A DNA stretch of 54,587 nt from a virus (UHGV-0036483), one strand, 5' to 3'; shown: positions 26,203 to 26,283, counted from the stretch's first letter. Notes: generated by a model from the sequence alone, not told the origin. A program made the numbers and translations.

Positions 26203-26231
26203 TTTATACAAAATGTATTCGTTGAAGTGAA
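26203..26231 (-). promoter_or_regulatory. putative promoter of lipoprotein gene: -35 TTCACT, 17 bp, -10 TATAAA
   Basis: Hexamers read on minus strand; same architecture as promoter at 29242..29270. Confidence 0.4.
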
Positions 26232-26283
26232 GCCATTTTGTATAAAATAGAGATCAAGATCACGCTTTTTATGAGGTTAAATC

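Follow-up and report, generated by a model that had tools for sequence, protein, structure and literature searches.

A conserved candidate promoter module upstream of exchangeable cargo genes in the tail region of an mEpimmI coliphage

Two intergenic regions in the genome of the virus UHGV-0036483, one in front of the tape-measure gene and one in front of an M-like tail gene, share an exact 16-mer within a block that, read leftward and against the tail genes, has the layout of a sigma70 promoter. The window, i.e., the whole stretch of DNA analyzed here, comprises 54,587 nucleotides (nt). The analysis confirms that the paired 16-mer blocks are a real feature. In our opinion, they probably mark paralogous, weak, CRP-assisted sigma70 promoter regions of moron-type units, whose accessory genes are referred to below as cargo. 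The blocks are best read as a conserved promoter module of such units and, as such, fairly ordinary phage gene regulation. What is new is the reuse of the layout at three cargo ports and at an early promoter, the accompanying CRP-like sites, and a hitherto undescribed word that recurs across the genome.

The window is a temperate coliphage genome in circularly permuted form; the phage belongs to the mEpimmI group, which includes mEp021, mEp044, mEp010, and their relatives. By megablast, most of the tail region, and likewise of the early and nin regions, is 86–91% identical in these relatives, and the gene order agrees with that of the annotated mEp021 record and of a prophage inserted beside dgcM in E. 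coli N25. The 16-mer blocks are confined to prophages of this group and have a low prevalence among complete E. coli genomes (28 and 9 of 5,426 for the two blocks).

Geometry of the paired blocks

The first of the two gaps (26127–26283) lies between a leftward open reading frame (ORF; 25752–26126) and the ORF of the tape-measure protein (782 amino acids, aa), which starts at 26284; the second (29201–29369) separates a leftward ORF (29045–29200) from the M-like tail gene, which starts at 29370. A preliminary description of this DNA had placed GTGAAGCCATTTTGTA on the plus strand of both gaps and had read a minus-strand promoter in each, with 17 nt between the hexamers. The 16-mer is exact in both places, and both minus-strand readings are right (Table 1). 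On the minus strand, the 16-mer consists of an A-tract word followed by the first five bases of the −35 hexamer; the sixth base (26226 and 29265, respectively) falls just beyond it. The plus strand is, as noted before, pyrimidine-rich at both sites, which reflects the purine-rich leaders of the minus strand.

When the two regions are aligned without gaps around the 16-mer, as a form of the pairwise comparison that the preliminary description had proposed, 31 of 51 positions are identical, with TGTATA.AGAA following the 16-mer at an equal distance in both blocks. MAFFT applied globally to the two full gaps did not bring the block into register and was set aside in favor of the anchored alignment. 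The two leftward units share a homologous promoter-type block of identical geometry, whose hexamers are spaced within the 16–18 nt expected for sigma70, and which is the best minus-strand sigma70 candidate of each intergenic region. Other minus-strand −10 registers within the word (CAAGAT, TACATT, CAAAAT) lack a usable −35 kept at both sites and were rejected, as was a small ORF of 6–10 codons that would start at an ATG inside the word and has no ribosome-binding site.

Notably, the 16-mer alone is not significant, because 38% of windows simulated with a first-order Markov model hold at least one exact direct repeat of this length. This is what speaks for a chance repeat, an explanation that the preliminary description had itself named, together with a lack of promoter activity, as refuting its reading. 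Against it, the two copies agree in the type of gap they occupy, in orientation, and in their distance from TGTATA, and are kept in dozens of relatives. In addition, near-copies are tenfold over-represented, the 16-mer with up to three mismatches being found eight times in the window versus 0.76 expected, and the composite layout “A-tract word, 23–26 nt, TATAWW” gives six matches versus 0.1 in shuffled sequences. Chance is therefore refuted and, in our opinion, need not be considered further. The composite matches fall on both strands of site 1 (the block before the tape-measure gene), at site 2 (the block before the M-like gene), at 2323 on the minus strand, at 10919 on the plus strand, and at a PR-like promoter (52783–52825).

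The plus-strand part of the preliminary description fared less well. The extended −10 elements proposed for this strand are unsupported in the form given, since TG abuts the hexamer instead of being separated from it by one base, and the hexamer TATAAA has no T at −7. Better plus-strand candidates face both tail genes (Table 1), and they lie in different registers relative to the 16-mer; therefore, no single divergent module is common to the two sites. A partner promoter on the plus strand, built from these other elements, is nevertheless plausible. At site 2, TATAAT is invariant in 26 relatives while its flanks vary, and the −35 of the same candidate (GTGAAG) overlaps the minus-strand −35; at site 1, TAAAAT varies solely to TAGAAT. 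Judging by sequence, back-to-back promoters with overlapping −35 regions are a possibility at the blocks. Site 1 is moreover a palindrome of two inverted word copies, each arm of which coincides with the −10 region in one of the candidate promoters and with −49..−37 in the other.

Conservation of the blocks and exchange of the cargo

The second line of evidence is the pattern of conservation among relatives. When IMG/VR was scanned for exact matches, the 16-mer turned up at 60 loci, mostly on about 45 contigs of roughly 50–55 kb from this phage group, and the loci split into two classes that correspond to sites 1 and 2. To avoid selection on the 16-mer, relatives were re-sampled through the M-like protein and the N-terminus of the tape-measure protein. 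In 32 distinct relatives, CTCTATTTTATACAAAATG and ATTTTGTATA are invariant at site 1, the −35 is TT[C/T]A[C/T]T, the spacer is 17 nt long, and its center is variable. At site 2, TTCAC and TGTATAYAG are constant in 26 distinct relatives, all of which have a spacer of 17 nt, in 21 different sequences; the upstream word varies slightly (ACGAAATGG, ACAATATGG, TTTTCAAAATGG). A promoter would be expected to show just this combination of fixed hexamers, a fixed distance between them, and a spacer free to vary in sequence, and the footprint of both blocks is, as far as sequence comparison can tell, promoter-like.

The genes behind the blocks behave differently. Cargo 1 lies between the tail chaperone-like gene and the tape-measure gene, and cargo 2 between the tape-measure and M-like genes. 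About 20 gene architectures are found downstream of block 1 in 45 contigs, among them lipoproteins of 116–219 aa, a pair of 35 and 100 aa, an ORF of 28–29 aa, and others; homology among these relatives stops a few bases past the −10 or past the purine-rich leader. At site 2, variable extra genes follow the toxin-like pair. Three contigs (L207–L209) retain the block and the cargo side next to a tape-measure protein whose N-terminus is merely 32–33% identical. Thus, the earlier view that the block is carried by two cargo insertions fails: the block is fixed in the backbone, and it is the genes behind block 1 that are exchanged. In most relatives (L159–L200), the first gene behind the site-1 promoter, about 116 nt past the word, is a conserved ORF of 28–29 aa (MKNVNYHPNEHERYADFIEEMLKA...), and the lipoprotein gene of the window starts at the same ATG.

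The 84-aa product of cargo 2 matches the Pfam ParE-like toxin domain with 43.3 bits (cut-off 24.4), and a homologue is named “ParE family toxin-like protein” by PGAP. Family scans found no antitoxin family match for its 51-aa partner. Judging by its sequence, cargo 2 may be a toxin–antitoxin-like pair. A PADLOC search of the cargo proteins gave no defense-system hits, and an NCBIfam scan of them was uninformative.

Recurrence of the layout and of its word

The block is not limited to the two units for which it had been described. The layout TAC.AAA.GG, −35, 17 nt, TATAWW is also found at a third leftward cargo unit, at the PR-like promoter, and at a fourth unit at 10.9 kb, and is therefore best regarded as a phage-wide promoter module of the conserved backbone. 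The PR-like element is kept in all 43 relatives, and the 10.9-kb unit is kept in the E. coli N25 prophage. At cargo 3, most relatives have TACCAAAATGGATTGATC-17-TATATT, which is close to the PR-like sequence (TACAAAATGGATTGACT) even inside the spacer. A sigma70 weight matrix, built from approximate hexamer frequencies, ranks the PR-like, cargo-3 (second), and PL-like promoters as the best three of the window; this suggests that real promoters of this phage are detected. The PL-like sequence CCATT[C/T]TG with TAAACT is also kept in relatives. The word is the sole element common to the PL-like and PR-like regions. In most relatives (L211–L253), an inverted repeat of 8 bp, TTGACTCG...CGAGTCAA, with 22 nt in between, encloses the PR-like promoter; in the window, this repeat (52797–52838) has one mismatch and spans the −35 to about +8. 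It could represent an operator pair.

The word itself is prominent genome-wide. The 16-mer and its 13-mer core, with mismatches allowed, are 6- to 10-fold over-represented in the window; CCATTTTGT is its most over-represented 9-mer (12 copies versus 0.84 expected), and the core word also tops the over-representation of 8-mers and 10-mers. Copies are found at homologous places in mEp021 and in the N25 prophage, and they are about nine times as dense as in other phages whose M proteins are related, judged by the tail regions of those phages. Some copies of ACAAAATGG are start-codon contexts, which somewhat inflates these counts.

Sites resembling the binding site of CRP accompany most of these candidate promoters. 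Palindromes of the TGTGA-N6-TCACA type with at most one mismatch occur eight times versus 1.8 in shuffled sequences, and two are perfect. Class I CRP sites are centered near −61.5, −71.5, −82.5, or −92.5, and in this arrangement the C-terminal domain of the RNA polymerase alpha subunit (alpha-CTD) contacts the A/T-rich stretch that separates activator and −35. At six candidate promoters, CRP-like centers fall between −59.5 and −62.5 relative to predicted starts, near a class I distance; since the starts are predicted, such distances carry an error of 1–2 nt. The two at −59.5 belong to the candidates at 2301–2328 (two mismatches) and 5884–5911. The cargo-2 site is centered at −70.5 in all 26 distinct relatives, with one or two mismatches in 25 of them and three in one, and at cargo 3 the half-sites are kept in relatives while the central 6 bp vary. 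Furthermore, TACAAAATG, at −46..−38 of the PR-like, cargo-1, and cargo-2 promoters, agrees with the UP proximal consensus at seven of nine positions.

The class I positions of the CRP-like sites, together with an A/T-rich word between activator and −35, are the reason why a CRP-assisted mechanism is preferred here. Each block lies in the sole non-coding gap upstream of a leftward moron-type unit nested between rightward tail genes. Read leftward, the region comprises a CRP-like palindrome (at −60.5 or −70.5), the word GT(A/T)TACAAAATGG at −49..−37, a weak TTCACW hexamer, a 17-nt spacer, TG followed by TATAWA, a purine-rich leader, the gene or genes, and a hairpin terminator; the shared 16-mer corresponds to the −35 and the A-tract word immediately upstream. 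According to the preferred mechanism, sigma70 RNA polymerase would use the weak core elements with the aid of an upstream activator, the simplest being host cAMP-CRP at class I distance, and the A-tract would provide a UP-proximal-like docking site for alpha-CTD beside the −35. Cargo is swapped behind this backbone module, the block not being imported by the cargo. The analysis shows the sequence and geometry of the blocks, their pattern of conservation, the turnover of the cargo, and the distribution of the word across the genome; that the promoters are active, where transcription starts, and that CRP and alpha-CTD take part is inferred from these.

If the scheme is true, the features in Table 1 amount to the first map of mEpimmI promoter elements, including the PR-like and PL-like promoters, three cargo promoters, and several internal candidates. 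The tail region would contain fixed expression ports, and the genes exchanged behind them would include those of lipoproteins, toxin-like proteins, and other accessory functions; the lysogeny-associated cargo would be predicted to respond to the catabolite status of the host.

Table 1. Positions of the blocks, candidate promoters, CRP-like sites, and cargo units in the window
Feature	Position (nt)	Strand	Details
16-mer copy 1	26227..26242	−	reads TACAAAATGGCTTCAC; A-tract word and TTCAC of cargo-1 −35
16-mer copy 2	29266..29281	−	A-tract word and TTCAC of cargo-2 −35
Candidate cargo-1 promoter core	26203..26231	−	TTCACT (26231..26226), 17 nt, TATAAA (26208..26203); predicted start ~26196
Candidate cargo-2 promoter	29242..29284	−	GTTTACAAAATGG (29284..29272), TTCACA (29270..29265), 17 nt, TATATA (29247..29242); predicted start ~29235
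Site-1 palindrome	26204..26245		inverted word copies TTATACAAAATGT (26204–26216, +) and TTATACAAAATGG (26233–26245, −), 16 nt apart
CRP-like site, cargo 1	26249..26264		minus-strand CGTGATCTTGATCTCT, center −60.5; TGTGATC in most relatives
CRP-like site, cargo 2	29298..29313		TGTGATGAATTTCTCA, one mismatch, center −70.5; ~+4.5 of plus-strand candidate
Plus-strand candidate facing tape-measure gene	26222–26248	+	TTGAAG-15-TAAAAT, matrix score 10.7
Plus-strand candidate facing M-like tail gene	29266..29294	+	GTGAAG-17-TATAAT (TATAAT at 29289–29294), matrix score 11.4, among top 18 window sites
Cargo 1	25752..26126	−	124-aa lipoprotein, signal peptide with lipobox LLAGC, phrog_18614
Bidirectional terminator-like hairpin	25729..25745		ends cargo unit 1; annotated terminator in mEp021 and mEp044
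Cargo 2	28772..29200	−	51-aa ORF (29045–29200, phrog_29810), then 84-aa ParE-like toxin-domain protein (28772–29026)
Terminator-like hairpin	28637..28659		ends cargo unit 2; good T-run on minus strand
Third leftward cargo promoter (candidate)	30838..30901	−	ATACCAAAACGG (30878..30867), TTGATT-17-TATATT (30866..30838)
CRP-like site, cargo 3	30886–30901		CGTGACAGCGATCACA, one mismatch, center −62.5
Cargo 3 ORFs	30018–30812	−	include KilAC-domain protein; behind predicted cargo-3 promoter
PR-like early promoter	52783..52825	+	GTATACAAAATGG, A, TTGACT, 17 nt, TATATT
PL-like promoter	51937..51964	−	TTGACC-16-TAAACT; word CCATTCTGTAAAC (51938–51950) over spacer and −10
CRP-like site, PL-like	51983–51998		center −60.5
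Fourth unit, 10.9 kb	10897..10958	+	GTATACGAAATGG (10915–10927), ~24 nt, CCATTTTGTTATATA
CRP-like site, 10.9 kb	10897–10912	+	TGTGATCTGTATCACA, perfect consensus, center −60.5
Candidate promoter upstream of gene at 2364	2268–2328	+	TTGCGA-16-TAAACT (2301–2328), word over spacer and −10
Candidate promoter	5884–5911	+	TTGTTA-16-TATACT, between terminator and nutR2 (boxA 5926–5937)
107-aa winged-helix protein	51472–51795		opens leftward operon

Other copies of the word, and other repeats, deserve a brief description. Inverted word pairs are present at site 1, at 10.9 kb, at PL, and around a terminator, t4, where the two copies (5830–5842 and 5898–5910; 5829–5912 overall) bracket a hairpin with a 15-bp stem that contains a perfect CRP-consensus palindrome (5851–5866). 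This hairpin (5842–5875) probably corresponds to t4, a terminator predicted in the mEp021 paper, and the candidate promoter that follows it would give the second nut site a promoter of its own. The candidate at 2301–2328 is kept in mEp021 and in the N25 prophage. In mRNA sense, the word is found at three consecutive junctions of the leftward early operon (47584–47601, 48721–48738, and 49461–49478) as CCATTTTGTAAAC-CGGAGG-N9-ATG, with the upstream stop codon TAA inside the word; of the three, the helicase junction alone is present in mEp021.

Among the repeats of other kinds, a 34-nt element (24 nt exact) with a small hairpin, ATTTTTCGCGTAGAAGCGCGTAAA, is located on the plus strand at 17571–17604 and 29313–29346; the portal gene and the M-like tail gene, respectively, follow 25–45 nt downstream. 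A 41-nt inverted repeat (5922–5962 and 51822–51862; 76% complementary) with a boxA-like GCTCTTTAAAAA corresponds to nutR2 and nutL of the mEp021 map. Identical 21-mer translation-initiation regions, TAAGAGGTGAATTATGGCCCG, precede the gene of the small terminase subunit (15559–15579) and the gene at 21161 (21148–21168). The 328-aa replication gene contains iteron-like direct repeats, GGTTGCTCTCTGCCACTACC, at 51061–51171, where the origin is probably located. Tandem arrays of 42 nt and 108 nt (35409–37223) lie inside the J-like tail fibre gene (1,827 aa), whose repeat region has also been noted previously (PMC11893012).

Alternative explanations and comparison with known systems

Several observations weigh against CRP-assisted promoters as the explanation of the two blocks. 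The minus-strand sigma70 scores of cargo 1 and cargo 2 are 7.4 and 7.1, a level met five times per kb per strand. A is present at −11 in both −10 hexamers, but T at −7, a position that is almost invariant in sigma70 promoters, occurs in none of 58 distinct −10 variants (TATAAA, TATAAG, or TATAGA at site 1; TATATA or TATACA at site 2), and a promoter scan demanding T at the sixth position omits both promoters. Support for them thus comes from conservation and context, not from the matrix score. The site-1 CRP-like palindrome is weak, with three mismatches in the window and two in many relatives, and the PR-like promoter has no CRP-like site. A UP-like role of the A-tract leaves unexplained the conservation of GTWTAC and TGG beyond it, as well as the fact that the reversed word extends over spacer and −10 at the PL-like promoter and at two further candidates. 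The genomic study of mEpimmI phages (PMC11893012) covers nut sites, terminators, the CI-like repressor, and exclusion lipoproteins (Lpp), and describes neither promoters nor operators of these common temperate coliphages of the human gut. A full-text literature search for the shared word retrieved unrelated primer sequences only.

The word over the core of the PL-like promoter, the weak scores, and the extra conservation, none of it accompanied by a dyad, keep alive another explanation, in which a phage regulator uses AGT(A/T)TACAAAATGG as an operator that is dispersed and asymmetric; the CI-like repressor (52024–52671), which is a lambda-CI homologue, and the winged-helix protein of the leftward operon are candidates for this regulator. 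We regard this explanation as a serious though clearly less probable explanation. The bound protein would occlude the PL-like promoter, the plus-strand candidates at 2301–2328 and 5884–5911, and those facing the tail genes; at the leftward cargo promoters it would sit near −43, an activating position, and cargo would be wired to the immunity switch. Lambda CI activates PRM from about −43. An operator would account for the top rank of the word among the 8-, 9-, and 10-mers, its high density compared with other tail regions, its retention at homologous places in three genomes, its being the one element that the PL-like and PR-like regions have in common, and the inverted pairs, as well as for the flanking AGT and TGG, which are kept in both orientations beyond the contact needs of RNA polymerase. 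A search of these two regions for a shared dyad operator found none, although the repressor is a lambda-CI homologue. On the other hand, CI-type repressors bind dyads of about 17 bp, whereas the word is asymmetric. At the PR-like promoter, the word (−49..−37) does not touch the strong −35 and −10, a placement that suggests activation more than repression; the cargo-2 copies vary while the PR copies of the same contigs are unchanged; and several copies are start-codon or gene-junction contexts. All 43 relatives, like the N25 prophage, carry the same immunity region as the window (homoimmune), which confines the comparison to one immunity type. Among candidates tried and rejected are 434-type (ACAA-N6-TTGT) and lambda-type dyads, whose second half-site is not kept and which give no shared PL/PR dyad, and the consensuses of host factors (PhoP, OmpR, IHF, Fis, TyrR, CpxR, LexA, sigma54, sigma-S), none of which, in a preliminary comparison, is convincing for the word.

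An extended version of the operator explanation, in which the 15-mer ties PL, PR, two more early-region promoters, latent tail-gene promoters, and three antisense cargo promoters into the regulon of one switch protein, is more speculative still. If it were true, the same protein would silence those rightward and early promoters whose spacer and −10 the word covers and activate the leftward cargo promoters from about −43, and exclusion lipoproteins and the ParE-like pair would be switched on by lysogeny and tuned by host CRP. The recurring word is also a candidate operator of the mEpimmI immunity repressor, and an operator role, if true, would raise the interest of the blocks.

The remaining two explanations appear unlikely to us, the second more so than the first. 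The blocks might mainly serve the rightward tail genes, as internal plus-strand promoters or as RNA elements of the late transcript, e.g., a hairpin with a 13-bp stem just upstream of the tape-measure ribosome-binding site, so that the leftward reading would be secondary. The plus-strand candidates do score higher than the minus-strand ones, and they overlap both blocks; part of the conservation may therefore serve the tail-gene side, as the invariance of TATAAT amid variable flanks and the restricted change of TAAAAT would suggest. The site-1 palindrome also folds as RNA (z = −5.8 for the plus-strand transcript, −7.0 for the other strand), and CATTTTGTA, in mRNA sense, precedes the Shine-Dalgarno sequence at the three junctions of the leftward operon and, in many relatives, also that of the tape-measure gene. 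Yet the differing registers leave the shared block unexplained, a 15-nt spacer is poor, constitutive tail-gene promoters would be costly to a prophage unless repressed, and the leftward genes would still require a promoter, for which the gaps are the sole place. The hairpin has no covariation support because both arms are invariant in the 32 distinct relatives, and Rfam gives no family match across the whole window. Alternatively, the blocks could be linkers at module boundaries that guide the homologous recombination of cargo and have no regulatory role of their own. The homology breakpoints, which fall directly behind the −10 or leader and at the start codon of the tape-measure gene, would fit this, as would the Erf, NinB, and NinG/Rap recombination functions encoded by the phage and the word copies flanking variable genes of the leftward operon. 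However, for recombination of this kind it is corresponding positions of different phages that must match, and not several positions of one genome, where repeats would invite deletions; the fixed 17-nt spacing, the variable spacer sequence, and the constant CRP-like distance are promoter features. A linker function is compatible with CRP-assisted promoters as a by-product.

Returning to CRP-assisted promoters, the comparison with known systems reveals no new principle; rather, the concepts of morons and of activator-dependent promoters are extended to another phage group. Among class I CRP promoters, lac P1 has CRP at −61.5 and others near −71.5 (Busby and Ebright). The candidates described here resemble them in having a palindrome at about −60 to −62 or at −70.5, an apparently weak core, and an A/T-rich stretch separating the activator site from the −35; unlike them, site 1 has a poor palindrome (2–3 mismatches), and palindromes of this type could here belong to a phage protein.

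The UP-element proximal subsite is reportedly AAAAAARNR at −46..−38, according to Estrem and colleagues. TACAAAATG matches it in position as well as in sequence, and the PR-like promoter also has an A/T-rich distal region. Unlike in a generic UP element, conservation reaches GTWTAC and TGG, and the word is also found over −10 regions and at gene junctions.

In lambda, PR and PRM are divergent promoters with shared CI operators, while the C1 operators of phage P1 are dispersed and asymmetric. As at PR/PRM, the back-to-back candidates described here are 59–66 bp apart, with an element that would lie in one core and at about −43 of the other. As with the C1 operators, one asymmetric word is spread across many transcription units. 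Unlike in P1, the repressor is CI-like, for which a dyad is expected, and the word spares the PR-like core.

The moron concept is said to go back to Juhala and colleagues in 2000, with bor and lom of lambda as examples from lambdoid and HK97-like phages. Like morons, cargo 1 and cargo 2 are accessory genes located between essential late genes, are variable in content among otherwise similar phages, end in a terminator-like hairpin, and are preceded by a predicted promoter of their own; they would be transcribed independently, in this case opposite to the late operon. Unlike in morons, promoter, gene, and terminator do not move as one: the promoter lies outside the mobile unit and stays fixed while the genes change, and three units share a single layout with the early promoter of the phage.

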